A DNA stretch of 64,000 bases from a virus. Its lineage: Duplodnaviria; Caudoviricetes. The position numbers were made by a program, and so were the translations under genes. A model generated the notes under the pieces. It did no database searches, was not told the DNA's origin, and saw only the letters and a list, made by a program, of their open reading frames with translations. Below, one piece after another: positions 389 through 57,377 of this stretch; within the stretch, counting starts at the first letter, position 1; each line of letters starts with the position of its first letter. The stretch lies in the IMG/VR virus record IMGVR_UViG_3300017963_000189. One strand, given 5' to 3'.

Positions 389-409
389 AGTAAAAATATC
401 AACTAAATA

Positions 410-30400: not shown

Positions 30401-31651
30401 AACTCCACTTGATGATTGAGCCAAAATATAATCGTTAAATATTATTGGAACATTTATCTGCGAGAATCCATTACCTTCAGCAACATAAAATGATCCAGAA
30501 ACAATTACATCACCTACTCTTTCAATATGACCATCAGCAAATGAACCAGTCCACAATCCACCTTCACCGGCATTTAAAGCATAAGATGCTGTTATGGCCG
30601 TTGACGCTTGACTTGATGATATAGCGGTATCAGCAAATGATGAACTAATTGACCAATCACTATATGAAGATGATAAAGAATTTTCAGCAAATGAAGCACT
30701 TATAGAACGATCACTATATGATGAACTTTCAGCCCAACTTGCAGTTCCATACATCCTATTATCAGATCCACTTATATAAAAACTACCACTAACTTTTACG
30801 TCACCAAATCTCTCAATATGACCGTCAATACTTGATGTCCAATATGTATTAAGAGCATAAGATGCGGTAGTAGCATATGATGAACTTATAGCCCAATCAG
30901 CATGACTTGCAGAACTTATCGTTCCAAGAACAACACTTGCTGTTTGAGAATAACTTGAACTTTCAGCCCAACTCGCAGTACCATATACTCTATTATCCGA
31001 TCCACTAATATATAAACTTCCACTAATTTTTACGTCACCATAATGAGATATTGAACCATCCGCACTCGATGTCCATTGTGAAATTGTTCCACTAATAGAA
31101 CTACTTGGAATGGCTCCAGGATCAGCAAGAGTTAATCCCGTATATTTATATACCGTTACACTATATGGAGTTGGATAAGAACCACTCGCAGCATCAGCAA
31201 CGTGAAGAACACCCGTCTTGTAATCAAATATCCAACTTATCGCATCAGTTTTGAAAATTTGACTTCCTGAAGCATCATAAAGTTTTACTTCATACGATGA
31301 ACCATATTTATCACTTATAAAGTCGCCAATGAAATAACTCTGGGATGCTTCGTTGACCAACCAACCACTATTTATTGAGTCAGTTCCTGGTGTAAATCCA
31401 CTACCAGAAATAAAATAAAAGGCTTGATCGTTGAATGTTGGATCGGCAGTTAACGTGAATTGTTCGTAATATTCAGCATATCCGGATGTGATAGCAGACG
31501 CGGAATCCGTAGGAATAGTATTCATCCACACTTCGCGCATATGTGTGTTGATCGTATCTTTCCCTATCTCTTGAAAGAAATTCCTGTCAGGAGTCGTAAA
31601 TCTTTTATTAATTAAAGTCTTAAATGACTTGTCAGTTTTATTTAAAGCCAC
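27488..31651 (-). CDS. Large tail fibre/structural protein with Ser-rich 9-residue repeats
   Basis: 1387 aa, GTG start; SSS(F/Y)A(E/D)xx repeats; W(T/S)xSxDGxIxR...SGS connector modules shared with the giant fibre; propeller-like C-terminal region. Confidence 0.75.
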   Translation of the reverse strand: MALNKTDKSFKTLINKRFTTPDRNFFQEIGKDTINTHMREVWMNTIPTDSASAITSGYAEYYEQFTLTADPTFNDQAFYFISGSGFTPGTDSINSGWLVNEASQSYFIGDFISDKYGSSYEVKLYDASGSQIFKTDAISWIFDYKTGVLHVADAASGSYPTPYSVTVYKYTGLTLADPGAIPSSSISGTISQWTSSADGSISHYGDVKISGSLYISGSDNRVYGTASWAESSSYSQTASVVLGTISSASHADWAISSSYATTASYALNTYWTSSIDGHIERFGDVKVSGSFYISGSDNRMYGTASWAESSSYSDRSISASFAENSLSSSYSDWSISSSFADTAISSSQASTAITASYALNAGEGGLWTGSFADGHIERVGDVIVSGSFYVAEGNGFSQINVPIIFNDYILAQSSSGVNTYSTTIYPRGTIYKDYRDEFIDTEYQIVIDDSGIVGTLYDYGLSVTTTKFNISNYTGIGTFQGLIVSGNIVLRDLDTVDGVDISEFSSSVATQINNLQTGSTLWTLNDDGTISRDSNVKISGSLYLSGSDNRLYGTASWVESSSQAVSASSTLWSISSSFAESTPTASHANWSISSSFAESTPTASHAEWSISSSFADNTLSSSFAEWTISSSFADTSITSSHALTSITASFAQTVAPGIGGLWTGSFGDGHIERFGQVNISGSLIVSGALIDILAISQSDPLGFTIPTQREDIIINFNQAVAGTHLKSASGIAITYLDILTSETEATYLTGRQIGGRNLGTGKKWWINNSDGIGQLYGLNITGSISASFGIHAVGDVTASAFFASASIDQGLSDFLVWDSGSGEFKRRSGGSDGTSGTSGTDGLPGNDGTSGTSGTSASASLGDSFWTGSYDSMSISRYSEVQISGNLKFRDGDTVDGVDVSEFYGDTDRMLFTPFDTSYVNNITTQSLVQTSTFYSHHAIGKFSDGKIIHSWEHNNASGQYCIFDATGSLSSSILTFTASAQADYQDIIVSGSKAHIFYWNQYSGGGALRDSKYVQIDSNGTILKTVQWSPSRSNALGSTLLNDGNILLLYQNTEGGLGARTEYAIINTSGSTPSECYVTKSIIDTYNSTTKHYPVTFNNGNVILIYYNSPEYYYKIIDPTGSVVKERTAVDSRVDPEGWYLYNLTATSLTNGNVVLSYALEYDTRDEWYAAIIDPTGSILIQKRTGKVTDDDEWYWDYGDVVQLENGDILTGFSYWNDGTGVTDVAYNIVDTNLNVVTSESYFRAIDSGDNIGQVLVEEFNSGSGFLFTYGNDGNDFEYAAFSSQKTFTTINYDRVGIGTTTPGADLHVWNEISASNYEGLVENIDVSDFSASVAQKLTNIETGSAVWTIEGDGSISRNSNVKVTGSFDVTVTGSFGYLSVDGGTF
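29700..29980 (-). repeat. 27-nt coding tandem repeat (ISSSFAExx units)
   Basis: Repeated GATGAAC(T/TA)ATTG units on + strand; protein SISSSFAESTPTASHANWSISSSFAESTPTASHAEWSISSSFAD. Boundaries approximate. Confidence 0.75.
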
Positions 31652-40460: not shown

Positions 40461-42098
40461 TTAAACTTGATCAATATGACCCACATATATCTTCCCGTAA
40501 AATTCTGGCCTTACGATTTTCTTCGCGTAACGAGTCATAACGCCTCTGCGAGGAGTAAAATTATCAGGATCATAAATCAATGGAGTCATAATAAGTGGAA
40601 TGTAAGGTGAATACACAGCACCAGTTTCCAAGAAATTACTTCCTCTAAATCCGACCAAAGCGATATTTTCAGTAAGGTAAGGATTTTTGTAAACGGTGAA
40701 ACGTGAATTCAACATACCAACTTTTTGTACACCCATTGCGAATGATTGTTGGTTTCCATCAGTATCAGCAGCATATCCAGGAATAGATTCAATAACGGTA
40801 GCAACGTCAGGACTAACAACGATGAAGTTAGCTCCACCGCGAAGTGTTAATTGATGAATTTTGTTACTTACTTTTTGAATCTTATTTCCAAGAGTTTGAT
40901 ACCATTCATTCTTTGTACCAGTATGAGAACCAGCATCATAGAAATTGGTTTTACCATTGTTAATTTCATATCCAGGAAGAGCTGACCAGTAATCAGTAGT
41001 AATAGCGTTAGAAATAAGCATGTCAAGGATTTCTAAGTCAATTTCCATTCCAATATATTCACTCAAGAGAGCAGTTAACTCAGCTTCAGCGTCAATAGAG
41101 TGATATGCGTTCAAGTCTTGAGCCAATTCAGGAGTCCAAATAGCTTTCAACTTACGAGTTTTGGCGACGATAGGTTCTTGAGCAACCGACAAGTCGATTT
41201 CAGGAATATCAAGTTTAACAAGACTTCCAGACTCAGAAGTATCTTCGAAGTCACCACGAGTATCAGCAGTAGGTTGTTTGTGATAACGAATATCATATTC
41301 ACTTGCTGAGAAGTTAGCGAATGCAGCAGCACTACCAGAAACGATCCATCTTACTGTAGCACCAACTTGAGTTGTGTAAGCAGACAAATAAGATTGAATA
41401 CCACTACCACTAACAGAAAAAGCACGAACACCTTCGACATCAAGGTCAGATAAGTTACCAGTGTTATATGAAAGAGCGAAAAGTGTACCGGCAGCCATAG
41501 AAGCACTAATATGACCATCGTCAAAACCAACATCAGCCCATGTGACAGAAGCAGTAGCGAAAGCGTCACCACTTGGAGTAGTATCAAGATCAGCAGTTCC
41601 GCCATATCCATAATCATTAATTGAGTATCCGAAACGTCCACCACCGTAAAGACCACCAGTAGCTTCATCAGTCGTTCCAGGAGTTTTACCACCACCAGTT
41701 CCACCAAAAACAGATTGATTTTGGGTAAAACCAGGTTGTGTACCACTACCATACTTAAAGTCAATGTAAAATACAAGACCGGATGGTAAGTTCATAGGTT
41801 GAATCGATACGAATTCTTTAGCGGCAACTTCACCGAAAATTCTACGTACCAAAGGAAGAGCGACACCAGACCATTGTTCAGCACCACTACCACCAGTTTG
41901 AGAAACTTCGTCCAATAATTGGCGAGCTTGATTCTCTAATAGAATAGCCATTCCATAAATTTCATGTTCTTCGTTCATACCATCAAGAAGACCTGTTGGC
42001 TCCCATTTTTTCACGAGTCCACGAGTTTGCTCTAAAAGAGCATCATATGGATTTTGACCTTCCATTAATTTGTTTAAATTAAATAAGGTTTTACTCAT
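40461..42098 (-). CDS. gp23: Major capsid protein (T4 gp23-like)
   Basis: 545 aa; IQPMNLPSGLVFY, TRKLKAIWTPELAQDLNAYH, YSPYIPL, PRRGVMTRYA motifs. Confidence 0.97.
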   Translation of the reverse strand: MSKTLFNLNKLMEGQNPYDALLEQTRGLVKKWEPTGLLDGMNEEHEIYGMAILLENQARQLLDEVSQTGGSGAEQWSGVALPLVRRIFGEVAAKEFVSIQPMNLPSGLVFYIDFKYGSGTQPGFTQNQSVFGGTGGGKTPGTTDEATGGLYGGGRFGYSINDYGYGGTADLDTTPSGDAFATASVTWADVGFDDGHISASMAAGTLFALSYNTGNLSDLDVEGVRAFSVSGSGIQSYLSAYTTQVGATVRWIVSGSAAAFANFSASEYDIRYHKQPTADTRGDFEDTSESGSLVKLDIPEIDLSVAQEPIVAKTRKLKAIWTPELAQDLNAYHSIDAEAELTALLSEYIGMEIDLEILDMLISNAITTDYWSALPGYEINNGKTNFYDAGSHTGTKNEWYQTLGNKIQKVSNKIHQLTLRGGANFIVVSPDVATVIESIPGYAADTDGNQQSFAMGVQKVGMLNSRFTVYKNPYLTENIALVGFRGSNFLETGAVYSPYIPLIMTPLIYDPDNFTPRRGVMTRYAKKIVRPEFYGKIYVGHIDQV

Positions 42099-42128: not shown

Positions 42129-43250
42129 TTACTTTTTGTTGTGATTAATAAGTTTGTGAATGCGGCTTTTCACTTCATTATCTTCATTGACGATTTGTTC
42201 TTTATCAACTTTCTTTTCAGAATCAGTTGATTGAACAACAGAAGAAGCACCTTCAACTAAACGTTGTGTTCTTTTGTTTTCTTTCTTTTCGCCAACCGCA
42301 AGGTTTTCCATAAGTGTAGCAAAAATAAGTTTTACTTCACGTACATTCTTAGCACGATCAAAATTCTCAATGACTTTAACCTTGGCTTTGTTGTCAAGAT
42401 TATAACCACGAAATACTTTATTCGTGAAAAGAAGTTTTGCATTCAAAATGTTCGTTTCGTTAATGACTTTACGTTGTTTTTTGATTGCAGATACAGCTTC
42501 ACCAAGTTGAGCTTTAAGTTCAGCTATTTGATTTTCAAGAGCAGCAATTTGTCCAGGATAATCGATTTCATCAGCTTCATCAACAAGACCTTCTAAGTCT
42601 AATTCTTCATCGTCCTCAACTTCATCTTCAACTTCAGGTTCTACTTCAACTTCAGGTTCTACATCAACTTCAGGTTCCGCTTCAACTTCGGCTTCAGGTT
42701 CAACTTCAATGTCAAGTTCTTCATCTTCGTCGTCGTCTTCTGTTACTTCCATTTCCATTTCATCTTCCGGTTCCATTTCCATTTCTACCTCGTCGTCAAC
42801 TTCAACTTCATCGTCGGCTTCTTCTTCTAATTCACTAATAACGGAATCAAGATCAAAATCCTCGTCCAACTCAACATCTTCAGTCAATCCAGAATCTTCT
42901 TGAGCTTTTTCACCAGCTTTAACTTCAGTTTCACCACCAGGATCTTCAGTAGTTTCTTCAGAAGAGGCTTTTGAAGGCTCTTTGTTATCACCTTGTCCAA
43001 TATCAGACGAATCTGCAACTTCCTCTAAAGATTCATCTTCAGTGAGACCGGAATCTTCTTGAGCCATTTCAAATTCTTCCTCTAATTCGACATCTTCCTC
43101 AACTTCATCCATCTCGGATTGAATTTTTTTGGTGATGACAGAATGAATTTGCGGTTCAAACGCTTCTTCAAGAGCAGCTTTAGCTTGTGCTACAGCCATT
43201 TCTCTCATAGCTTTTGCGTCTGCAATCGCTTCTTTAATTAAATTACTCAT
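42129..43250 (-). CDS. gp22: Prohead scaffold/core protein (gp22-like); probable start MSNLIKE at 43250
   Basis: Extremely acidic with EPEVEV repeats and a duplicated AQEDSGLTED; coiled-coil C-terminus; directly upstream of MCP; SD GGAG before 43250. Confidence 0.8.
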   Translation of the reverse strand: MSNLIKEAIADAKAMREMAVAQAKAALEEAFEPQIHSVITKKIQSEMDEVEEDVELEEEFEMAQEDSGLTEDESLEEVADSSDIGQGDNKEPSKASSEETTEDPGGETEVKAGEKAQEDSGLTEDVELDEDFDLDSVISELEEEADDEVEVDDEVEMEMEPEDEMEMEVTEDDDEDEELDIEVEPEAEVEAEPEVDVEPEVEVEPEVEDEVEDDEELDLEGLVDEADEIDYPGQIAALENQIAELKAQLGEAVSAIKKQRKVINETNILNAKLLFTNKVFRGYNLDNKAKVKVIENFDRAKNVREVKLIFATLMENLAVGEKKENKRTQRLVEGASSVVQSTDSEKKVDKEQIVNEDNEVKSRIHKLINHNKK

Positions 43251-43377
43251 TACGTTTCTCCAATATTTTAATATGGAATTTAACACTATTCGGTGAGTGT
43301 CAATGACATTATAATAGTTACTACGTGACGTTATATAAGATAACGTATTTAGGTAGGTCTGATTTTTTCAAATCATA

Positions 43378-43782: not shown

Positions 43783-44025
43783 TTATAATGATTGTCGCCG
43801 TGTCTCGTGTCTCTGACGAGCCTTAGCTTTAGAAAGTTTGTCTCGTTTGATTGCAGATGGTTTTGTGTATTGTTGTGTCTTTTGTATGTCCAACATTAAC
43901 TCACTATCTTTTATTATTCTCTTTAATTTCTTTAACGCATACTCTAAGGCTCGATCCTTATCAATCTTTTTATTTAATTCAACATAATAACCTCTTAACC
44001 GTATGTTATCTACATTCTCTGGCAT
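43783..44025 (-). CDS. rpsU: Phage-encoded ribosomal protein bS21 homolog
   Basis: LEYALKKLKR...ELMLDIQKTQQYTKPSAIKR..KAKARQR matches the bS21 pattern (LExALRRFKR...xYEKPSxKR). Start placed at ATG 44025 after SD AGGAGGT; alternative start 44058. Confidence 0.8.
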   Translation of the reverse strand: MPENVDNIRLRGYYVELNKKIDKDRALEYALKKLKRIIKDSELMLDIQKTQQYTKPSAIKRDKLSKAKARQRHETRRQSL

Positions 44026-44069
44026 AATACCTCCTGTTGTTTTGCTTCTTTGTGACATTTATATTACCT

Positions 44070-44373: not shown

Positions 44374-45243
44374 TTATTTCACCTTGTTATATTCTCTCTC
44401 TTGAACAGAATCACCTAATACATAAGTGTTAAACAATACTTCTAATCCCGTTCCAGTTTTAAACTGAGCATTTAAGAACTTGTCTTTTTTGACAAACTTT
44501 TCCATTTTTTTCTTATCAAATTTAGCAGCTTCACTCAATCGACCAATGACTTTTGTCAAAGAGTTTGTTGGTACTTCCACTTCAAACAAACCAACATCCC
44601 CACCACCAACAGTCGCCATATTATCATTGATTTCATAAATCTTTACACTACCATTTCCTCTTGTTATTTCAGTATTAACTTTCTTAACATATCTTGGAGT
44701 TGGATTGTGTTTTCTAATGACATTCATATTGACTTTCGCCCGATCACCTTGATATAAAGTTGTGTCGGCGTTTGCGGTAACAGGTGGAGCTTCTTCAGCA
44801 ATCGAAGCAATCTCAAAATACCTGTTGAGAATATGACCCATATCTTCATATAAGGACGCCATACGATCTTGATGTTCTTGGACGGCAGACGCTACCTTAC
44901 CAAATTCACCGGAAAAGGTTTTCAATTCTTTCATATTTCGTTGAATAGTTACACCGTCAAACCAATCGTTAGCACCTTCGATTGTGTATTGTTCGGCGAA
45001 CGTAGCTATTTCACTTAACGATTTCGCTAAATCGACAAGATTTCCTTCACGATAAATCATTTTACCAAGTTTATTATATTCCTTAATAGAATTCATTATA
45101 CGTTCTTTTACATCAGCAGGAATTTCTTGTTTTTGTTCGAAATAGTTTTCCTCAATTAATTCTTTTCTCATTTCTTCTCTTGCTTCAAAATCTTTTTGTT
45201 CTTCTTTAGAAAAGAAATGATCTACTAATTTCTTTTTCGCCAT
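44374..45243 (-). CDS. Multi-module putative head protein
   Basis: 289 aa; helical core (DWFDGVTIQRNMKEL...YEDMGHILNRYFEI), then an SH3-like module and a basic tail, separated by IAEE and RLSE. Confidence 0.65.
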   Translation of the reverse strand: MAKKKLVDHFFSKEEQKDFEAREEMRKELIEENYFEQKQEIPADVKERIMNSIKEYNKLGKMIYREGNLVDLAKSLSEIATFAEQYTIEGANDWFDGVTIQRNMKELKTFSGEFGKVASAVQEHQDRMASLYEDMGHILNRYFEIASIAEEAPPVTANADTTLYQGDRAKVNMNVIRKHNPTPRYVKKVNTEITRGNGSVKIYEINDNMATVGGGDVGLFEVEVPTNSLTKVIGRLSEAAKFDKKKMEKFVKKDKFLNAQFKTGTGLEVLFNTYVLGDSVQEREYNKVK

Positions 45244-45286
45244 TTTATTACTCCCTTTATTTATTTACATTTTTTTCTTGACTTTT

Positions 45287-47098
45287 TCACTTTTTTTTCG
45301 TAAATTTCTTGATTTTCCCTTTTAAAATATTAACTAATTTATCTATATCTTCCTCAGTTTTTATCTTTTTCTTTGTTCCATATAATAACTCGGCATCAGA
45401 TCGTCCTCTCTTATCAGTACCAACAACCGCTATTTCTACCTCAACAATATTACCATATATTGATACATCCAACACAGTTTTCCAATCATCCGATTGTATA
45501 GATGTCCCTTTACCAGGAACTAAAGTTAAATTCCAACCTCTTTTTCCATAACGTCTAATTTTATTGTCTAATGTCTTTAGTTTTTTATCTAAAAGAGTAC
45601 CTATTCTTCTTTCACTTAATTCATTTTCTTCTGTTACTAATGTATTCTCTTTTAACTTATTTGGTTTAAACTGTATTCGTTGTCTCATTTTTCCTGGATA
45701 TGGTTCTAATTCAAGTGTATAACTACCATCATTGTTTTTATGTAACCACACACCATCATGTCCAGTCCCCAAACCAAAACCAGCTTTATTTAATTTAGCA
45801 ACCAACTTACCAGCATTCTTTAATGTCAATTCACCTTTAGATACCACTACTTCACCATCACCATTATCAGCAACATATTTAGACGCTTCATTCATCATTA
45901 TTTCTTTCACTACACTACGAATAACTTCTTTTATTTCGCCCATCATCATTTCATCATGGCGAAAATCTATGTACGCTTCCATACTTGGTTGATCATCAAT
46001 TTCACCGGATTGAATGTACATCAATGTATCTTTAGCTAATTCCTTCATTTCCTTAGCGTTATATTTATACTTTTTCTTAGCATACTTGAGTCCATCTTTT
46101 ACCATATCCTTGTCAGATTTGATTTCATTCACTCCCTCTCTGCGGGCTTTCTCTCCAGCAGATGCTTGAGCAAAATGTTTGTATTGTTTTTTAGTCATTC
46201 CACCTTTTTTACCACCTTTTTCTCCAGCACTGGCTTTAGCAAAATGTTTGTATTGTTTTGGAGTCATTTTTTCGTCAAGTATGTCGCCTTCTTTTAACTC
46301 GGATAAATCGGGCGCGTATATCATTTGAAACTTTGATCCAGGATTTTTTATCCGGTCTGCTTTCATCCTCGTCAAACAAGTATTCTTGGACGCAATACAT
46401 TGTACCACTCCATCACGAGTATATCCGTATTCAGCGTCAGTTGGTAAATCAGTTACAGTATTTTCCTCAACACTCTCTTTTATAGTTTTCAACATATCAA
46501 CAGGAATTACCATTTCACTACCCTTCATATGTCCAGTCAATATTTCAACATCGGCTAATTTGTCAGTCGAATAATTCATAATTCTTCCAGTGTCGCCTTT
46601 CAAACTTGTAAAGTTCTTAAAAAATTGTTTTGGAATATATTTCGATGTTACTTTATATATTTTTACTTTATCTCCGATACCTTCATTCATTGTACTCTCC
46701 TTTACAAGTAAATCTGCATTGTTGATATATCCTTTTTCTTTTCCAACTTTTACTATAGCGTACCCGCTCGCTGGAGCTTCGTCACTTACTTTACCCATTT
46801 TACCTTTATGTTTTCCATACATTACTTTAACTTTCGATCCAACAGGTATTTCACTATCAGGATATTCCTTAGAATAGTTTATCCAACCTTCATTTACACT
46901 CTCAGGAACTTCCTCAGGTAATCCCTTATGTTTTGTCTTAGCAAACTTTTCAGTATCCTTGTCTTTCATTGTTTTAGCAATACCTTTGATTTTATCCTGC
47001 AACGCCTTAGGAAGTTTACCCATTTCTAACTCACCCTTTTCATAGGCATGTACCATACCCATTAATCGTTGCTGCGATTTACTCACTGCTGGACACAT
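45287..47098 (-). CDS. Putative polyprotein of about 7 small basic modules
   Basis: 603 aa; modules bounded by SVNE, TMNE, SVEE, ILDE, GVNE, MMNE, ELSE; includes two KOW/SH3-like units and an N-terminal PAVSKSQQRLMGMVHA module. Confidence 0.7.
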   Translation of the reverse strand: MCPAVSKSQQRLMGMVHAYEKGELEMGKLPKALQDKIKGIAKTMKDKDTEKFAKTKHKGLPEEVPESVNEGWINYSKEYPDSEIPVGSKVKVMYGKHKGKMGKVSDEAPASGYAIVKVGKEKGYINNADLLVKESTMNEGIGDKVKIYKVTSKYIPKQFFKNFTSLKGDTGRIMNYSTDKLADVEILTGHMKGSEMVIPVDMLKTIKESVEENTVTDLPTDAEYGYTRDGVVQCIASKNTCLTRMKADRIKNPGSKFQMIYAPDLSELKEGDILDEKMTPKQYKHFAKASAGEKGGKKGGMTKKQYKHFAQASAGEKARREGVNEIKSDKDMVKDGLKYAKKKYKYNAKEMKELAKDTLMYIQSGEIDDQPSMEAYIDFRHDEMMMGEIKEVIRSVVKEIMMNEASKYVADNGDGEVVVSKGELTLKNAGKLVAKLNKAGFGLGTGHDGVWLHKNNDGSYTLELEPYPGKMRQRIQFKPNKLKENTLVTEENELSERRIGTLLDKKLKTLDNKIRRYGKRGWNLTLVPGKGTSIQSDDWKTVLDVSIYGNIVEVEIAVVGTDKRGRSDAELLYGTKKKIKTEEDIDKLVNILKGKIKKFTKKK

Positions 47099-47111
47099 AT
47101 TTTATCTCCTA

Positions 47112-47672
47112 TTATCTTACACTATTTACAAGTTTATACGCTTGTTTCAACGCTTTAGCTGCGTGTTTAGCACTTTGAAATACTTCGTAATCTTCACCAA
47201 TGTTTACCAACTCATTCAATCCATCTTCAACATCGGCTAATAGATTTTTGTAGTATTTGTAATCAGGTTTTTCTTTCTCTTGTAATGGCTGTCCTTGTTC
47301 ATCAAGAAATTTTTCGCCTTTTTCATTAAATTGTCCAGGAAGTCCTTTAAACTCAAAATTATCTTCCCTTTTTGGCGACAATCCTACAACTTGACCCACT
47401 GGTAATAAACTTGAAATCATTACCATTCCTTCATCTAACTTTTCTTTTTTAGATGTTTTGTTTTCACCTACATTTTCTTTTAAAGGTTGTATTACATCAA
47501 TAGGTACAACAATCGTAGCACCTTTCCATTCACCATCTAACATTTTAATGGTTACAGAATCTTCAGGTTGAACTACTCCAGAATCACCTACAAATTTTTT
47601 AAAAGTGCTTCCCGAAATCTTCCCTTTGGCGCGATGAATTTTTACTTTATCACCGGGTTTAAATTTAGCCAT
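47112..47672 (-). CDS. Three-module putative cargo protein (KOW/SH3-like + LDE-bounded repeat + helical)
   Basis: 186 aa; N-terminal module similar to a module of the 603-aa ORF; middle module duplicated in 47686-48375. Confidence 0.7.
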   Translation of the reverse strand: MAKFKPGDKVKIHRAKGKISGSTFKKFVGDSGVVQPEDSVTIKMLDGEWKGATIVVPIDVIQPLKENVGENKTSKKEKLDEGMVMISSLLPVGQVVGLSPKREDNFEFKGLPGQFNEKGEKFLDEQGQPLQEKEKPDYKYYKNLLADVEDGLNELVNIGEDYEVFQSAKHAAKALKQAYKLVNSVR

Positions 47673-47685
47673 TTAATTTCTCCAT

Positions 47686-48375
47686 TTATTTAAAAGGTTG
47701 TATCTTTCCTAATTTTGACATTTCTTTTTCAAATGCTTTAAAAGCATCTTCAACTGTTTTTTCAATTTTCTTCGGATCGGCTTCTTTCATTTTGATAGTC
47801 CACGTATGATCATTACCAAAACCAAAACTAACTTGATAATAATCCCAAAGTTTTGTTATTCGAACAGGAAAATATGTATTTATTATATTTTTTGGACGAG
47901 GGCTTAAATATTCAGTATCCCTTTTTTCGTTTATAGTTTCTTCCTCAATCTTATTACCCATTTCATCTAATACCTTTACGCCTTCTTCGTTGAATTGACC
48001 AGGTAATCCCTTAAACTCAAAATTGTCTTTTCGTTCTGGCATTAAACCAATGACACCACCAACAGGTAAAAGGCTCGACATCATTACCATACCTTCATCA
48101 AGTTTTTGCTTACTTTCACTTACAACTTTTTTCGCAGCAGCAAGCACATCTTTTTGATTTGTTTCAATCTCCTTTACAGCAGCTACAAAGAATTTTTGAG
48201 CGACACCCTTTTCACTCTTAGCTTTTTTCTTCGCTTCCTCATACATATCAAGAAACATCTGTGACGCTTCTTTTTTGTCTTTAGCTTTCTCAATACTCTT
48301 TGCACGAATTGTCCAATCTTTAGTCAATTTTGCTACAGTAGCAATATCTTTAAAGAATCCTTCATCTAATTTCAT
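47686..48375 (-). CDS. Three-module putative cargo protein
   Basis: 229 aa; MKLDE start; shares the LDEGMVM...FEFKGLPGQFNE...LDE module with 47112-47672. Confidence 0.7.
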   Translation of the reverse strand: MKLDEGFFKDIATVAKLTKDWTIRAKSIEKAKDKKEASQMFLDMYEEAKKKAKSEKGVAQKFFVAAVKEIETNQKDVLAAAKKVVSESKQKLDEGMVMMSSLLPVGGVIGLMPERKDNFEFKGLPGQFNEEGVKVLDEMGNKIEEETINEKRDTEYLSPRPKNIINTYFPVRITKLWDYYQVSFGFGNDHTWTIKMKEADPKKIEKTVEDAFKAFEKEMSKLGKIQPFK

Positions 48376-48388
48376 TTTATATCTCCTA

Positions 48389-48694
48389 TTATAAATTTTC
48401 TATTTTTAACGCGGCTTTCCGTAGCGCCATTGTGATTTCTTCTAATAATATTTTATGAGCTTCATCAAAATTCTCTGGGCTAACATATTTACGAATATGA
48501 TCTTGACCCTTTGTAATACCACTTAAACCAGCTTTATGATTACCTATAAGAGCAACAACAATCGCGTCAGCCAACCAAGCAAGTGCTCGTTTGTCTATTA
48601 CTTCATTTACTTCATCTTTCATTTCTTGAAGGCGATAATCTCTCCATTTGAAACTCATATCGGTATATGTTTTTGCTTTCTTTTTATCTCTCAT
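48389..48694 (-). CDS. Small putative cargo protein
   Basis: 101 aa; KWRDYRLQEMKDEVNE leader followed by a helical body. Confidence 0.65.
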   Translation of the reverse strand: MRDKKKAKTYTDMSFKWRDYRLQEMKDEVNEVIDKRALAWLADAIVVALIGNHKAGLSGITKGQDHIRKYVSPENFDEAHKILLEEITMALRKAALKIENL

Positions 48695-48916: not shown

Positions 48917-49525
48917 TTATTCTCCCATATCTATAAGAATATCAGTTACGATTTCTTGTACTTTACAATATTTGTTTACACATACTTGACCATACTTATC
49001 AACACTTTCTTGAATAGGTTTCATAAACGCACCGTGTGTCGATGGATTACTTACCATATCAAAAGCAATCAACTCAAAATCGTCTTGGACGACCGCACCA
49101 TGTTCAGCAGATTCTTGAACCGATCCCAACCCACGAGAAGAAATACCTACAAGAATACCACCTTTCAATAATTCTTGAAGAATTTTTCCTGCAGGAGTAT
49201 TCAACACTTCTATTGTACCGATTAAGTCTTTACCTTCCCAATGCATTTCAACTATATTATGACTTACATTAGCTAAGTTTACGACAGAAGAATCGGGATG
49301 ATCTAACTCACCCAATGCTCGTTTTTCGCCAATCAACTGTTCATATTTTTTCGCTTCCCTGGCGAGAATAGGTTGTGGATATACACGACCATTTTGATTT
49401 TGTGCTTCTGCTCGTTGTAATATACCCTTGATCAAAATCTTACCATTGTGTACTTTCATTGATTCTCGTATTACACCACCCGCTATTTCTAAAGGCATAT
49501 ACTCCGCTAATATCTGCTTATTCAT
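48917..49525 (-). CDS. gp21: Prohead core protease (T4 gp21-like)
   Basis: NQNGRVYP, LGELDHP, VSHNI, GISSRGLGS, DFELIAFDMVSNPS motifs. Confidence 0.95.
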   Translation of the reverse strand: MNKQILAEYMPLEIAGGVIRESMKVHNGKILIKGILQRAEAQNQNGRVYPQPILAREAKKYEQLIGEKRALGELDHPDSSVVNLANVSHNIVEMHWEGKDLIGTIEVLNTPAGKILQELLKGGILVGISSRGLGSVQESAEHGAVVQDDFELIAFDMVSNPSTHGAFMKPIQESVDKYGQVCVNKYCKVQEIVTDILIDMGE

Positions 49526-51423: not shown

Positions 51424-51633
51424 TTAAAAAGTAATTTCAATTTTCTTAGGCTTATTTTTCATTTTTTTTATTAACGCAACTAACTTATCATATAATTTTT
51501 GATCGTGATCGTGTTTTTTATCAGATGTATTATTAAAAATAATAACTGTACCTTGATAAGACGCAACAAAATCATTCCCACCTTCATTTAAAGTATTTTC
51601 ATTTAAAATTTTATTCCAAGTTTTCTTATCCAT
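51424..51633 (-). CDS. Class C leader (MDKKTWNKILNENTLNE) cargo protein
   Basis: 69 aa; body unrelated to the neighbour that shares its leader. Confidence 0.75.
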   Translation of the reverse strand: MDKKTWNKILNENTLNEGGNDFVASYQGTVIIFNNTSDKKHDHDQKLYDKLVALIKKMKNKPKKIEITF

Positions 51634-52757
51634 TAGAATCTCCGTATCTTATTAATGATCCTTGTCATTTTTTCATTTATCTTGTTCAAGGCTCTATGAG
51701 TATTTTTCCAATATTTTTGTGAATCAATTCCGGTCTCTTGTTTCAAACGAAGATTCAAGTCAATCGTTTTTTCTATCGATTCAAGTTGATTTCTTACGTC
51801 TCTAATGGCGACACCGATTTTTTGTTTGTTGTTCATTGTATCATCGTCACGATAATTTTGATAAGCTCCACGGCGACCCTCTTTGACCACTTTTATTACT
51901 TGACCAGAAGAATCTTCTACAGATATTTTAGCCCCTTTGTTATCCTTTTTCATCACACTAATAACATCGTCTATCTCTTTGTGATCAGTTGTATGAAATT
52001 GATCCACTACCTTATTATTCTTTATAGCAACTATTGAATAACTTTTTCTCGCTTCATTTACACTTTCATTCGTTGATCCCATATATGATTTTATTTCATT
52101 TAAAAAATAAGTTAAATCGGACAACTCAGCTAATCCCCAACTCTCATTTCGCCGTCTCGCTAAATTTAACTTTTTAATATAAGAATCTAACTTTTTCATC
52201 ATTCCTTTTTTGTCGGCTTTCGCTTCATTTATAATACCTTCCTCTAACTTGTCGCCACCACCGGTAAATGGACGCTTACCACCAAAATTACCAAAATCTT
52301 GTTTATCAGATTGAGTTACTTCTTGATATAATTCAATCGTTATTTCTTCATTCAATCCACTTCTTACTTTCATTTCAGCAAACTTCTTACGATATACTAA
52401 TGATTCTTTACGAGCATTTGCTAAATCTTCCCAATCCCGATCCTCAGGATCATTTACAAGTTTATATCCAAGTTGTTGTGAAATTTCCCTTGTCCTATCC
52501 TTCAAACTCTTGGCGAAAGCATATGGAGTTTGGTATCCATCTTGACCGCCCATGGCAGTTACTGAACTCACTTCGTCAAGTTCTTCATCTTTTCGTTTAT
52601 CACACGTTTCATTCTTTTCACATTTCTCACACGGCGTTCCACATTCGCCAATATCACATTTATCTTTTTCCTCGTCCTCAATGTCAAATTGATCCATTTC
52701 TTGTTCAATCATTGTTCGTATCAATTCACGAATATCACTTTCATTTAAATTAGCCAT
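51633..52757 (-). CDS. Putative polyprotein (probable start MANLNE at 52757)
   Basis: SD AAGGAG before 52757; class B-like leader; Cys cluster; modules bounded by ELDE, GLNE, IINE, SVNE, VVKE; C-terminal coiled-coil module QKIG...YWKNT. Confidence 0.7.
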   Translation of the reverse strand: MANLNESDIRELIRTMIEQEMDQFDIEDEEKDKCDIGECGTPCEKCEKNETCDKRKDEELDEVSSVTAMGGQDGYQTPYAFAKSLKDRTREISQQLGYKLVNDPEDRDWEDLANARKESLVYRKKFAEMKVRSGLNEEITIELYQEVTQSDKQDFGNFGGKRPFTGGGDKLEEGIINEAKADKKGMMKKLDSYIKKLNLARRRNESWGLAELSDLTYFLNEIKSYMGSTNESVNEARKSYSIVAIKNNKVVDQFHTTDHKEIDDVISVMKKDNKGAKISVEDSSGQVIKVVKEGRRGAYQNYRDDDTMNNKQKIGVAIRDVRNQLESIEKTIDLNLRLKQETGIDSQKYWKNTHRALNKINEKMTRIINKIRRF

Positions 52758-53667
52758 TGACTTTCTCCTTGTTAGGACAATCAACAACTTTTTTGACTTC
52801 TTTCAATAACTCAAAATATCTCATAAGTTGAACAAGTTGTTCTTCACTTACTACTTTACCACGTTTTAGTTTTTCAATGTTTGGTATAACACCTTCAACT
52901 TTTATTTGAGTCGCCTTATCTTCTATTTTAGGAATAAGTTGTGTTACTTCATCATTCACTCTATCAACTTCAGCATCAACGTATTCACGGAATTGATTTG
53001 TGTTTGACACATTATAGATATATTCACGAAGTAAGTTCTTTTGAGCAGAATCTAAACCATCGTATTTCTCATTGAATTTTTCAGTCATAGTTTTATATGT
53101 GATCAATCTCAAATCTTCAGTCATCTTCTTATATTCTTCGATAGCTTTATCATTTTCACTAACTTCAGGTTTAGTAGGTTGAGTTTGTGTTCCAATGATA
53201 TGTTCTATAAGAGTTGATTGACATTGAACTTTTTCGGCAGGTGGCAACTCACCATCTTCAGATGTAGCTGCTTCGAAAAGCTGATATATGGATGCTAAAT
53301 TTTTGTAATTAGGTAATTTACTCCTAAAAAATTCATCCACATTATAATTTTCTTTAATCTCTTTAATAAGATTATATTTTTCTTTACGTAAAGATGTATT
53401 GTTGATCTTCTTACGAGAATCAATAGATTCACTAATTAAATCTTTTGCTCGATTTTCAGATTGAAATTTGGTTTCCATTAATCCTTTGTATAAAGACAAC
53501 TCTTTAGATAATGGTTTTCCATTTCCATAATATCTTTTAATCAACTTTATCGCAAACGATTCATCGTTATCTTTACTTTCGTTTAACGCATCCGCAGTAG
53601 TTTGTCTTACTAAAAGCTCAAATAATAGTCCCGTGTTTTTGAACTTAGAATGTTTGATTCTTTTCAT
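52750..53667 (-). CDS. Helical protein downstream of portal (possible prohead core/assembly factor)
   Basis: About 305 aa starting MKRIKHSKFKNTGLLFELLVRQ; own TATTTATA motif upstream. Confidence 0.7.
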   Translation of the reverse strand: MKRIKHSKFKNTGLLFELLVRQTTADALNESKDNDESFAIKLIKRYYGNGKPLSKELSLYKGLMETKFQSENRAKDLISESIDSRKKINNTSLRKEKYNLIKEIKENYNVDEFFRSKLPNYKNLASIYQLFEAATSEDGELPPAEKVQCQSTLIEHIIGTQTQPTKPEVSENDKAIEEYKKMTEDLRLITYKTMTEKFNEKYDGLDSAQKNLLREYIYNVSNTNQFREYVDAEVDRVNDEVTQLIPKIEDKATQIKVEGVIPNIEKLKRGKVVSEEQLVQLMRYFELLKEVKKVVDCPNKEKVNG

Positions 53668-53741: not shown

Positions 53742-55616
53742 TTACTCTTTATTTTCTTCAATTTCGTCGCCAGAACCACTATTTTCGGTTATTTCTTGTC
53801 CTTCATCAACAAAATAGTTTTCTAACTTCTTAAAATCCACTTCCGTGATAACTTTTTTTGTTGTTAATATTTCTTTACCAAAAGCAGCTTCAGCTTTCCG
53901 TTTATTTCTTTGTAAATGTTTCTTTTTATTGGCGTCATATCCAACATCTTGATCCAATTTCATAATGTTTTGATAATCTTTTTTACCTATTGGATCATCA
54001 CCAAATGGATCATCTTTTTTTCTTGTTCGAGCATTCCCGCTTTTACGACCATCTTCCGACGGCTTCACAGGAACATATTCTTTTTCTTCATCGAATTGTA
54101 AATTAAAGTTTTTATTCTCACCAAATTGATCAGGATTACTTCCACCAAAACCTTGATCACTTTCAGCGGGATCATTACCCTCGTCCTCAATTTGTTGTAA
54201 TCTATAAACTCTCTTTTGATCGTCAATGACACCTTTCTTTTCTTCGGCGATTTCATCTTCCGTCATCTTCCATACATTTTTGTAAATCCAATTATCACTC
54301 AACATTTTCAAATCTTTTATATCTCTCGCCAAACTTGTTTTTGAATTCCAAATCTCGATTTTTTCTTGTTCGTAAATCGTAGATGGATTTGTTAACTCAA
54401 TCTCAAAATCAACTAAATCATTACCCTCAAATCCTTGAATGTATAAATGAACAAGGGCGACCTTTGTAAGCTCAGATACGATAATTTTTTGAATTCTCTC
54501 TATCGTTCGAGCAAATCGAACATCCTCAGCAGCCAACGTCGCTTTTCCACCGACTTCTTCCTCATATCCCAAGAACGCTTTAGGAATTTTAAGGGCAGCC
54601 ATTAACTTGTTTCTCAAGTATTCAATATCATCTATTTGACCATCATTTGACAAACCACTCAAAGAATCAATGTCAGTTCCACTATCCCCACCACGAACAG
54701 GAAGATAAAAATCTTCCGTCATATTTTGAAGATTGAACTTTAAGTTATATTCGCCAGTTTGTGGATCAATGTAAGGAACTTTCTTAACTTGTGAAATAAT
54801 CTTTTTCATGTAGGCGTCAACTTCATTCGGAGCAATATTTCCTACATCAACTTTAAAAATTCTTCGTTCAGGAGCTCTCATGATTCTATGAATCAACATA
54901 GCATCTTCCATAAGAATTAATTGTTTCCAAACCCTACGACCTGGCTCAATCATTGATTTTCCATATGGTAAAAAGTTTGAATCAGTCATCATTCTAAAAT
55001 GAGCAACTTCAAACATTTCCAATTCAGCCTTTCCGCTCGGCCCCTCAACTACAAATTGAACCGCAGTTGGTTTATTTGGATCAGCACCTTCCACACGTTT
55101 TACATCATAAACAGGTAATGGTAAAACATTCACTACTCCAAACTTTTCTGCTAACTCTAATTGTAAATAATAATCACCATATTTACACATTCCCCTTATC
55201 CATGTTGGTAAGGTGAATTCTACATTCATAATATCATAAAATAAATTCTCTAACACTTTTCTTACATTAGAACTTCCAGCTTTAATTCTAATCATGTCGC
55301 CCATTTCATTCTTCGTTGTCGTTTCTTCAGAATAAATGTCAAGTGCTGACGCTATGATCGAATCACTGTCCATAACTTCATAATCACGAAATAACTGCAG
55401 ACGCTGTGCTTCCATTCCATATAACGCTTGTTGTTGACGAAGGGCGTAATTAACGGTTGAATACATCCTCGTGAATTTATCATTACGATGTGTCAAACCA
55501 AATCGTTGTATTTGCCCAGTATCAACAACCTTGAGTTGTTTTCCACCAATATTGCGAATAACAACATCGGAAGAAAACATCTTTTTTAATTGTGCAAATA
55601 ATTTGTTGTCTGCCAT
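53742..55616 (-). CDS. gp20: Portal vertex protein (T4 gp20-like)
   Basis: LMEDAMLIHRIMRAPERRIFKVDVGN, EDFYLPVRGG, IDDIEYL..KL..ALKIPKAFL motifs. Confidence 0.97.
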   Translation of the reverse strand: MADNKLFAQLKKMFSSDVVIRNIGGKQLKVVDTGQIQRFGLTHRNDKFTRMYSTVNYALRQQQALYGMEAQRLQLFRDYEVMDSDSIIASALDIYSEETTTKNEMGDMIRIKAGSSNVRKVLENLFYDIMNVEFTLPTWIRGMCKYGDYYLQLELAEKFGVVNVLPLPVYDVKRVEGADPNKPTAVQFVVEGPSGKAELEMFEVAHFRMMTDSNFLPYGKSMIEPGRRVWKQLILMEDAMLIHRIMRAPERRIFKVDVGNIAPNEVDAYMKKIISQVKKVPYIDPQTGEYNLKFNLQNMTEDFYLPVRGGDSGTDIDSLSGLSNDGQIDDIEYLRNKLMAALKIPKAFLGYEEEVGGKATLAAEDVRFARTIERIQKIIVSELTKVALVHLYIQGFEGNDLVDFEIELTNPSTIYEQEKIEIWNSKTSLARDIKDLKMLSDNWIYKNVWKMTEDEIAEEKKGVIDDQKRVYRLQQIEDEGNDPAESDQGFGGSNPDQFGENKNFNLQFDEEKEYVPVKPSEDGRKSGNARTRKKDDPFGDDPIGKKDYQNIMKLDQDVGYDANKKKHLQRNKRKAEAAFGKEILTTKKVITEVDFKKLENYFVDEGQEITENSGSGDEIEENKE

Positions 55617-55685: not shown

Positions 55686-56045
55686 TTATATGTCCACTAC
55701 TTTTGTTCCGGGTTTCGGCTTAAATCCAACTTTTTTCATTACAGTTATAATCGTCAACTCTAATATATCACCTTTTTCTTTTAATATACCTACAAGATTT
55801 AGTTTTGTCCTTGAATCTCGTATAAGAATATAATCTCCAACATTTATGTTGTCGCCAATTAATTCCCGACTTATCGGCTCAATCGCTCTCTGAGCAACCG
55901 CAAGAATCTCCTTGTCAGTAATTTCCTCAGCGTGTCTAAATTGACGCTGACCGGCATGAACAGTCTTGTCTAACTCAATCGTTACATTGATCTTGCGAGA
56001 TACTTTACCAATAGATTTTTCCATAAGTTGTTTTAGTTTTATCAT
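55686..56045 (-). CDS. Class A leader plus DUF4258-like (BECR RNase-fold) domain
   Basis: MIKLKQLME leader; KTVHAGQRQFRH..EITDKEI...LTIITV pattern. Confidence 0.5.
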   Translation of the reverse strand: MIKLKQLMEKSIGKVSRKINVTIELDKTVHAGQRQFRHAEEITDKEILAVAQRAIEPISRELIGDNINVGDYILIRDSRTKLNLVGILKEKGDILELTIITVMKKVGFKPKPGTKVVDI

Positions 56046-56926
56046 AATCCCGTAGCACCTTCACCTTTTTTCCAACCTTGTTTCGCCCGAATGGCGAAAA
56101 GAAGTTGACCCATAAGTTTTTTATCGGCTTCAGTTGATGTCTTTTTCGCTTTAAGAGCAGCAACTTGTTTTTTAAGTTGTCCAATGGTTTTATCGGCATG
56201 TTGTCCCGTACTCTTTACATCTACATCACCTTCCCATTTTTCCATCAATACCTCTCTAACCACTTTGCGAATCATTTCTTTCAATTCACTTTTCTTCATG
56301 GTTATTTCTCCCAAATGATCTTTTAATATAAGGGCATATTTTGACCAATCTTTAGGTAAAATCATACTCTTATCTTTTGGTTGTCCTTTTAACACCTTTA
56401 TTCCATCTGGCGTAAACAACATAAGTTTTTTAGATTTTGGTAATTGTCCAATAATACCTTTTCCACTAAGAAAGTTTTTTGTTAACTCTTTCTTTTGATC
56501 TTGTGGAATGGGCATTTTTTCTATTCTAAAATCTATTCCATCAATACCCTTTTCATCATAGTCGCCGTGTGGCAATTCACATATCAAACTTTCATTCACA
56601 ATACTTTCTCCTATATTTCCAACAAACCCAATTTTCCAAGGCGTTGGCGAATATTCACTCCATTTTGACTTGTCTACCTCAACATCAAACATCTTTCCCA
56701 TAAATGTAAATCGACCCGCTAACTTGTCGATTGTTCCCGTTTTCGCCGAGTTCGCGATCTTCTTTATGATGTTTTTGTATTTTGGTACTTCGTCTGGCGA
56801 TTTTTTCAAGGCTTCATATACTTTCTTCCAAATCTTACCAAACTCTTGTAAGGTTTTCCGGTCTTCTGGTAAATTGACAGTCCCTCTATCAACCTGAACC
56901 TTGACCTTTTCTAATAATTTTTCCAT
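56042..56926 (-). CDS. Three-module putative polyprotein with internal restart
   Basis: 294 aa; boundaries IVNE, HLGE, VLME; internal SD plus ATG at 56299. Confidence 0.7.
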   Translation of the reverse strand: MEKLLEKVKVQVDRGTVNLPEDRKTLQEFGKIWKKVYEALKKSPDEVPKYKNIIKKIANSAKTGTIDKLAGRFTFMGKMFDVEVDKSKWSEYSPTPWKIGFVGNIGESIVNESLICELPHGDYDEKGIDGIDFRIEKMPIPQDQKKELTKNFLSGKGIIGQLPKSKKLMLFTPDGIKVLKGQPKDKSMILPKDWSKYALILKDHLGEITMKKSELKEMIRKVVREVLMEKWEGDVDVKSTGQHADKTIGQLKKQVAALKAKKTSTEADKKLMGQLLFAIRAKQGWKKGEGATGL

Positions 56927-57101: not shown

Positions 57102-57377
57102 TTACTTCATTCCCATTGATTTTCGTTTTCTCATTGAAATTCTTCGTTTTCTATTTATTTGTGATTTTTTCGCCTTTCGTTTCTTGGCGGCTTTCCTCTG
57201 CGCGATCTTTCGCCTCATTTTCTCGCCCGCTGACATTTTTTTGTACTTACCACCTACTACCTTGAAGCCCTTTTTGGGTTTCTTCCGACGTATCTTCTTA
57301 CCCTTGCGGATTACATACTTGTACGCCTCACCTAAAATTTCCTCGTCTATGTCCTCTAATATATCAAATAGTTTCAT
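57102..57377 (-). CDS. gp68: Prohead core protein gp68-like (acidic leader + K/R-rich body)
   Basis: MKLFDILEDIDEEILGE then IRKGKKIRRK...GFKVVGG...MSAGEKMRRK...RKRRISMRKRKSMG. Confidence 0.65.
   Translation of the reverse strand: MKLFDILEDIDEEILGEAYKYVIRKGKKIRRKKPKKGFKVVGGKYKKMSAGEKMRRKIAQRKAAKKRKAKKSQINRKRRISMRKRKSMGMK

Follow-up and report, generated by a model that had tools for sequence, protein, structure and literature searches.

An eight-module protein with prohead-protease-like sites at its joints in the head gene cluster of a T4-type phage

Can a tailed phage make several capsid-interior proteins as one chain and leave their separation to its prohead protease? This question is raised by a 603-aa open reading frame (ORF), the product of which is designated P0001, in a 64,000-nucleotide stretch of viral DNA (hereafter, the window) of the IMG/VR virus record IMGVR_UViG_3300017963_000189 (Duplodnaviria; Caudoviricetes). 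The whole record is 168,383 bp long, with a completeness estimate of 78%. The original prediction, made from the sequence without database searches, described P0001 as a bead-string polyprotein of about seven basic mini-domains separated by short peptides ending in Glu. We found that P0001 consists of eight modules that are reordered and recombined in relatives, that some of them occur as free genes, and that the module boundaries carry a hydrophobic-x-Glu motif like that of the T4 prohead protease gp21, a relative of which is encoded in the same head gene cluster. In this uncultured, T4-like ocean phage, P0001 is probably a fusion of capsid-targeted internal proteins, from which the prohead protease would release about eight pieces.

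Modular architecture of P0001

The bead-string organization was borne out, while the number of beads and their uniformly basic character were not. P0001 comprises eight modules, A to H, namely a DUF3008 domain, a KOW-like barrel, an SH3-like unit, and five unnamed modules, along with two internal leader remnants (Table 1). Five modules are basic, with isoelectric points (pI) of 8.8–10.2, D and F are acidic (pI 4.8 and 5.5, respectively), and G is neutral. All seven tetrapeptides named as separators are present, ending at aa 70 (SVNE), 139 (TMNE), 212 (SVEE), 276 (ILDE), 325 (GVNE), 404 (MMNE), and 496 (ELSE), and the segments, predicted to be 45–110 aa long, measure 49–107 aa. The chain contains 20 [LIVM]-x-E motifs versus 11.8 +/- 2.8 in composition-preserving shuffles, and several of them are clustered at the joints.

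The PAVSKSQQRLMGMVHA module was identified as Pfam DUF3008 (PF11450; aa 4–63, E 4.2e-5). The match is above the gathering score (24.1 bits versus a cut-off of 24) and covers profile positions 1–56 of 57; three PHROGs also matched module A, with E-values down to 5e-9. Module C, the second SH3-like unit, is homologous to the N-terminus of the product of ORF 47112–47672, as had been proposed (aa 142–216 versus aa 7–74, 35% identity, E 2e-9), and is 77% identical to aa 173–245 of the relative P0002. Module D was found in 10 relatives, with x-x-E ahead of it in every one, and module F in 12, all of them with [IVM]-[NT]-E ahead; look-alikes of D are viral clusters of 68–70 aa. The 69-nt tandem duplication claimed for module E was recovered by a repeat search as two copies, 46147–46199 and 46216–46268, which are 87% identical and spaced by 69 nt. 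It was missed by Tandem Repeats Finder, which reported no repeat over 45000–48500. The duplication is old, since the relatives P0002 and P0124 have both copies.

No peptidase or enzyme family was found in P0001 in the Pfam and PHROGs scans at E 0.01, and a sequence search of the PDB with P0001 yielded chance-level matches only, to an anti-CRISPR chain and to ribosomal protein eS21 (E 0.24). The anti-CRISPR chain, of PDB 5uz9, weakly resembles aa 306–395 in the region of the acidic module F, and its E-value of 0.065 is at chance level. Look-alikes of modules D–F and H in the ESM Atlas were unnamed clusters or DUF clusters only.

Module shuffling and the junction motif

Relatives of P0001 were searched in collections of 5.8 and 1.8 billion proteins, which gave 1744 representative matches. 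Most of them have only DUF3008 in common with P0001. Among the matches of similar length, DUF3008 is nearly always N-terminal in proteins of 340–1050 aa, and in hundreds of metagenomic proteins of this size it heads a string of other modules; in some chains it is internal or present twice (P0124). About twenty closer relatives have additional modules of P0001 in varying order and combination. The order A-B-C-D-E-F-G-H of the window corresponds to A-D-E-C-x-F in P0002 and to A-D-x-B-y-F-z in P0004, the latter being encoded at the same protease–scaffold locus in the relative contigs L003–L005. The comparison of module order, suggested as a check of the original prediction, therefore revealed the same modules reordered and recombined at an orthologous locus.

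The KOW cassette (module B) is also present, with 83% identity, in P0009, an orthologue of ORF 51633–52787 (-) of the window, where it lies directly ahead of a junction found in the window's protein as well. P0009 comes from another metagenome; compared with ORF 51633–52787, its N- and C-terminal parts are kept, the middle modules differ, and the KOW cassette abuts a conserved GRRGAY. A word-based search for short relatives of aa 71–212 found none, and no locus was confirmed when viral contigs were scanned with P0001.

The junctions were counted over all 46 distinct left boundaries that eight module families have in P0001 and 20 relatives. Glu was located <=3 residues from the module start at 45 of the 46 boundaries, and P3 was I, V, M, or L at 44 of the 45 scored junctions, so that [LIVM]-x-E stands ahead of the module; these counts are non-independent, as considered below. 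By comparison, [LIVM]xE has a background rate of 3.0% per residue in these proteins. P2 is variable, being mainly N, D, or E, with K, S, T, A, and Q as well; P5 is frequently Glu, and P1' is G, N, I, K, V, or A. The motif agrees with the T4 gp21 logo as given in PMC9026906. Since P1 is invariant, P3 constrained, and P2 free under changing upstream neighbours, the junctions look like protease sites rather than a structural element. Because each module moves with its own preceding site or leader, the modules are cassettes that can be fused, swapped, and freed by recombination at the joints.

Leader peptides

Small genes of the head module begin with one of two conserved leaders followed by unrelated bodies, and six or seven neighbours of P0001 are of this kind. 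The class B leader (MDKKTWNKILNE/NTL..., the slash standing at the proposed cut) heads ORFs 51424, 51160, and 44070 and, in a variant form, ORF 50590, while the class A leader, an amphipathic helix (..RLKEIIKEEV.NFLNE/), heads ORFs 49542, 43446, and 50208. Leaders of either class terminate in Leu-x-Glu.

P0001 holds one internal copy of each class. The class B copy had been noticed previously; it is truncated, spans aa 479–496, and matches the leaders of ORFs 51424, 51160, and 44070. The class A copy at aa 386–404 was missing from the earlier list. It is a unit of its own, since P0004, P0005, and P0129 have another module between F and the helix. In the set of DUF3008 homologues P0011–P0121, DUF3008 is followed by [LIVM]-x-E, typically V-x-E, within 16 residues in 163 of 204 homologues, frequently with an amphipathic class A-like helix thereafter.

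Stand-alone modules and recombination at the joints

Modules A, B, G, and H each occur also as stand-alone small genes. Free module B is represented by P0180 (81 aa), in which a class A leader ending in LKE directly precedes the module, and likewise by P0142. Module G corresponds to P0191 (77 aa) and P0251 (94 aa), the C-terminal ends of which coincide with the end of G. A stand-alone homologue of module A is the DUF3008 protein of cyanophage S-SCSM1 (gp93), 47% identical over aa 3–75. It is annotated as a virion protein, and the virion proteins of that study were determined by mass spectrometry of CsCl-purified particles (PMC9602691).

The closest free counterpart is that of module H: P0265 (131 aa) has a complete class B leader and is 95–96% identical to aa 481–602 of P0001. 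In a relative it is encoded in the replication region, beside the genes for DNA polymerase A, gp32, and UvsX. DNA homology between the window and the P0265 gene (contig L006) starts inside the leader, with none upstream of that point, and the only copy of module H in the 168-kb record is the one in P0001. A free leader-tagged gene was therefore fused to the end of P0001 in the recent past, through its leader and with the loss of its first eight codons alone.

The join was also recovered among the contigs of a public DNA run. Both of the DNA runs concerned appear to be a single data set and may be the source sample, so that the contigs do not represent an independent sample. A 1261-nt unitig with a depth of about 11 matches 45277–46537 with zero differences and spans F, G, both leaders, and H. 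Since it bridges the F-G-H join, a scaffolding error is excluded. A second contig of the same run, with a depth of about 6 versus about 11, matches the window (46475–46537) as far as the codon for Glu208 (IKE) and continues with GINE-GKTLKS in place of SVEE-NTVTDL. This contig hints at a co-occurring strain in which another module follows C, the break falling precisely at the joint.

Predicted structure

The AlphaFold model of the whole chain contains separate small folds with low-confidence linkers rather than a single compact fold, in line with the bead-string prediction; the confidently folded modules are A, D, F, G, and H. Its mean predicted local distance difference test score (pLDDT) is 62.7, and the predicted template modelling score (pTM) is 0.38. 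Alignment depth was available for modules A, D, and F, together with one row for H, and there was none for B, C, E, and G. The pLDDT is <50 at aa 58–222 (B and C, without depth), 266–278, 320–323, 411–424, and 480–491, and low-confidence stretches lie at or beside five of the seven proposed sites. A Foldseek search of the PDB with the whole-chain model returned nothing meaningful.

When aa 58–222 were folded separately with eight homologues of B, module B formed a five-stranded barrel (pLDDT 75–93) that ends at aa 137, after which the score drops. In Foldseek, this barrel matched the Spt5/NusG KOW domains and the 53BP1 Tudor domain with a probability of 1.0 but an E-value of about 4e-3, with a root mean square deviation of 1.4–1.9 A over about 50 residues. 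The model thus suggests a KOW-like fold, as in the original prediction, but the sequence match to Pfam KOW (PF00467) is below the gathering score: the module reached 16.9 bits versus a cut-off of 22.3 (E 0.0055, only 20 residues matched).

Head gene setting

All genes near the P0001 gene are on the minus strand, and the Pfam and PHROG scans showed that together they constitute a T4-type head module (Table 1). The gene for P0001 has the gp21-like protease gene on one side and, on the other, those for the scaffold and the gp23-type capsid protein; the gp20 portal gene lies upstream. Seven small genes separate the portal and prohead protease genes, and nine, including that of P0001, lie between the protease and the scaffold-like gene. 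The P0001 gene starts with a strong GGAG Shine-Dalgarno sequence 8 nt ahead of the ATG, a spacing similar to that in the neighbouring genes. The prohead protease shares 35% identity with T4 gp21, and a His, a Ser pair, and an Asp are invariant in the alignment. The nearest relatives of the capsid protein, with 51–57% identity, are from a 484-kb uncultured phage, Microcystis phage Mel-JY01, and Flavobacterium phage immuto.

Table 1. Modules of P0001 and genes of the surrounding head cluster (a slash follows the Glu of a proposed cut)
Feature	Position	Strand	Residues (aa)	Characteristics	Basis	Predicted fold (pLDDT)
P0001, 603-aa ORF	45287..47098	-	1-603	Lys-rich (15.8% K), pI 9.3; stop codon 45287-45289		
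Module A, DUF3008	46889..47098	-	1-70	three helices; end ...VPE-SVNE/	Pfam PF11450, PHROG matches	aa 1-57, three helices (85-98)
Module B, KOW/SH3-like five-stranded barrel	46682..46888	-	71-139	end LLVKE-STMNE/	AlphaFold, Foldseek	
Module C, second SH3-like unit	46463..46681	-	140-212	end IKE-SVEE/	homology to ORF 47112-47672	
Module D, acidic two-Cys (TxTDLP...)	46271..46462	-	213-276	end LSE-LKE-GDILDE/	AlphaFold	beta-beta-alpha-beta (about 65-70)
Module E, two basic 17-aa repeats (KQYKHFAxASAGEK)	46124..46270	-	277-325	end GVNE/	direct-repeat encoded	
Module F, helical	45944..46123	-	326-385	IKSDKDM...FRHDE	AlphaFold	(95-98)
Internal class A leader-like amphipathic helix	45887..45943	-	386-404	..IKEVIRSVVKEIMMNE/	matches neighbour-gene leaders	
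Module G, alpha/beta	45665..45886	-	405-478		stand-alone homologues, AlphaFold	(54-76)
Truncated class B leader	45611..45664	-	479-496	NKLKE/NTLVTE/ENELSE/	matches neighbour-gene leaders, P0265 leader	
Module H, basic alpha/beta	45290..45610	-	497-603		stand-alone P0265, AlphaFold	(75-94)
Major capsid protein, gp23 family	40461..42098	-		L-D-E at aa 62-64, near T4 gp23 maturation site		
Acidic scaffold-like protein, gp22 position	42129..43286	-		net charge -80; 23 [LIVM]xE sites	synteny with T4	
Two neighbouring multi-module genes	47112..48375	-		common LDE-bounded module; one has the SH3-like unit of P0001		
Prohead protease, T4 gp21 family (Peptidase_S77)	48917..49525	-		presumed processing enzyme	Pfam, E 4.7e-30	
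Two small genes, 84 and 69 aa	51160..51633	-		identical 15-aa class B leaders, unrelated bodies		
Portal protein, gp20 family	53742..55616	-			Pfam	

Several other ORFs of the window deserve mention. The module common to genes 47112–47672 and 47686–48375 (-) is 60% identical over 85 residues and begins directly after KLDE; ORF 47686 itself begins with MKLDE/G, following the same cassette logic as P0001. The multi-module ORF 56042–56926 (-), upstream of the portal gene, contains an internal class A leader-like helix at aa 219–231 (IRKVVREVLME/K). ORF 57102–57377 (-) encodes a 91-aa protamine-like protein (net charge +29) with K/R runs behind an acidic N-terminal stretch and three [LIVM]xE sites within the first 17 residues, a candidate leader-tagged DNA-condensing head protein. 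A gene for a bS21-like ribosomal protein is located in the head module at 43783–44058 (-) and at the same position in the relative contig L003 (8398–8664), where a PF01165 match of the product is on record. Two giant tail-region ORFs, 17884–27402 (3172 aa) and 27488–31651 (1387 aa), both (-), are strongly poor in [LIVM]xE, with 5–6 motifs per 1000 residues versus 20–60 in the head-module genes.

Proposed processing and alternative explanations

We infer processing of P0001 from the gp21-type protease, the T4 precedent, and the comparative patterns. According to the proposed scheme, the chain would be made late, together with the products of the head genes, and built into the prohead interior, where the activated gp21-type protease would cut after the Glu of [LIVM]-x-E at the joints. 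Cuts at aa 70, 139, 208/212, 276, 325, 404, and 484/490/496 would produce about eight proteins of 5–12 kDa and two short leader peptides. The basic pieces (DUF3008, the KOW-like and SH3-like units, the KQYKHF repeat, and H) would stay with the packaged DNA, as T4 internal proteins do, and would probably enter the host with it. Candidates for the head-addressing element of P0001 are the internal leaders and DUF3008 itself.

Several observations weigh against this scheme. The N-terminus of P0001 carries DUF3008 instead of a short targeting leader, with no [LIVM]xE ahead of aa 60. The acidic modules D and F are a poor match to a simple DNA-counter-ion role. In the model, MMNE (aa 404) falls where a predicted long helix frays out, and ELSE (aa 496) where a helix begins. 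For modules C and E there is almost no alignment depth, so that their folds are not established, and C has no confident model. Junction counts are non-independent because each module is passed on along with the site ahead of it. Finally, with 20 such short motifs in P0001, it is uncertain which of them are used.

As an alternative, P0001 may act uncut, or after trimming at only one or two sites, as a flexible internal or DNA-binding head protein with several domains; the x-Glu motifs would then be remnants of fusion linkers. Precedents exist: prohead protease substrates of phage SPN3US mostly lose the N-terminal propeptide only (PMC10052503), and the virion RNA polymerase of phage N4 is packaged unprocessed (PMC5512222). 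However, the hydrophobic P3 and the Glu at P1 are kept at 44 of 45 junctions next to many different neighbours, while P2 and the flanks vary, which points to selection on the site itself, and the internal leaders are retained although they would be useless in an uncut chain. On balance, an uncut or barely trimmed P0001 appears unlikely.

Cuts at many sites would also be expected if P0001 were a scaffold or core assembly protein of the acidic, largely helical type of T4 gp22, gp67, and gp68, chopped so that the pieces leave the capsid and not carried as cargo. Multiple cuts are a well-known means of clearing T4 gp22 and the propeptides of jumbo phages (PMC5694885), and the gene is located within the head assembly cluster. 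Nevertheless, P0001 is basic (net charge +24), as opposed to its strongly acidic scaffold-like neighbour, which already provides a separate gene of this type; its segments are independently folded domains of mixed alpha/beta structure that are free genes elsewhere; and the free DUF3008 protein is retained in cyanophage virions. A scaffold function is quite improbable on these grounds.

Separate products arising without proteolysis, from in-frame Shine-Dalgarno sequences and ATG codons at the joints, are highly improbable: AAGGAG stands 6 nt ahead of the ATG of Met137 at the B–C junction, but it is simply a Lys-Glu codon pair, none was found at the other six junctions, and a Shine-Dalgarno sequence at a usable distance precedes only 1 of the 25 in-frame internal ATGs, on which count internal starts were rejected as a general mechanism. 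It is equally hard to believe that the long ORF is an assembly chimera joined via repeated leader sequence, since, although leader DNA is repeated in the genome and the G-H join is inside a leader, the join is in frame, the only H copy in the record is that of P0001, and the unitig from what may be the source sample crosses this region, from F through both leaders to H, without differences.

Comparison with known systems

Internal proteins of T4 are the nearest parallel to P0001 as a probable fusion of capsid-targeted proteins. The T4 cargo (IPI, IPII, IPIII, and Alt) remains with the DNA and is delivered by injection (PMC9026906, PMC3012670). In IPIII, the cut is blocked by Asp10 (PMC9026906). 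Both systems have a Peptidase_S77 protease, small and mostly basic proteins that are unrelated except for a short conserved leader, a hydrophobic-x-Glu cut motif, and a gene content that varies among relatives. In T4, however, one gene carries one N-terminal leader, the capsid targeting sequence, and gives one product, while P0001 joins about eight units in one frame, its leaders lie within the chain or have shrunk to the bare site, and its DUF3008 N-terminus has no short leader. No IPI, IPII, IPIII, or Alt family was found in the Pfam and PHROG scans of P0001. By analogy, P0001 would work like the T4 internal-protein system, of which it is not a strict member, as it would also give many products per gene.

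Polyvalent proteins (Iyer, Burroughs, Anand, de Souza, Aravind 2017) likewise combine many unrelated domains in a virion-gene neighbourhood; their domains were proposed to be packaged, delivered with the DNA, and cut into units, and the authors drew an analogy with the polyproteins of RNA viruses (PMC5512222). With eight independently recombining modules encoded among virion genes, P0001 falls in their range of two to fifteen unrelated domains. Polyvalent proteins, however, are large, consist mainly of enzymatic and anti-defence domains, and have their own embedded peptidase (MPTase), whereas P0001 has modules of 49–107 aa and no peptidase or enzyme domain; it would depend for their release on the prohead protease, acting in trans at T4-type sites.

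T4 gp22 and gp23, phiKZ gp175, and SPN3US gp245 are known to be cut after Glu several times each by a gp21-related protease as the head matures (PMC10052503, PMC5694885). There, the cuts clear a propeptide or scaffold and leave one mature protein, while the segments between the sites of P0001 are folded modules that exist also as free genes. DUF3008 itself is a free protein of about 60–70 aa in isolates of T4-like cyanophages, whereas in P0001 it heads a string of modules. Polyvalent virion proteins (PMC5512222) and multiple prohead protease cuts in propeptides and scaffolds (PMC10052503, PMC5694885) have thus been published already. Our literature searches returned no description of strings of folded modules punctuated by prohead protease sites, which agrees with the earlier remark that polyprotein processing is rarely described for tailed-phage cargo.

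Implications

The particular value of this locus is that a fusion through a leader has been caught in the act and that a strain-level swap appears at a joint. If P0001 is cut as proposed, the T4 rule of one leader and one protein would be extended to a polyprotein strategy in a DNA phage, and injected cargo would evolve through shuffling of protease-bounded cassettes. A broader generalization, which we consider conceivable although the odds are somewhat against it, is that ocean T4-like phages follow a cassette grammar for capsid cargo, with a site or leader for each domain, leader DNA serving as the recombination joint, DUF3008 as the head-addressing first bead, and at least eight proteins delivered per ORF. 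Under such a grammar, free genes, fusions, and swaps may interconvert fast, even among strains of one sample.

A leader or [LIVM]-x-E ahead of each module could be used as an annotation rule for capsid cargo in uncultured T4-like phages, and the cargo found in this way may include anti-defence proteins. For engineering, such chains would offer natural designs for loading multiple proteins into T4-type capsids from a single gene. DUF3008, so far without a function, obtains a testable role as a virion-interior protein.

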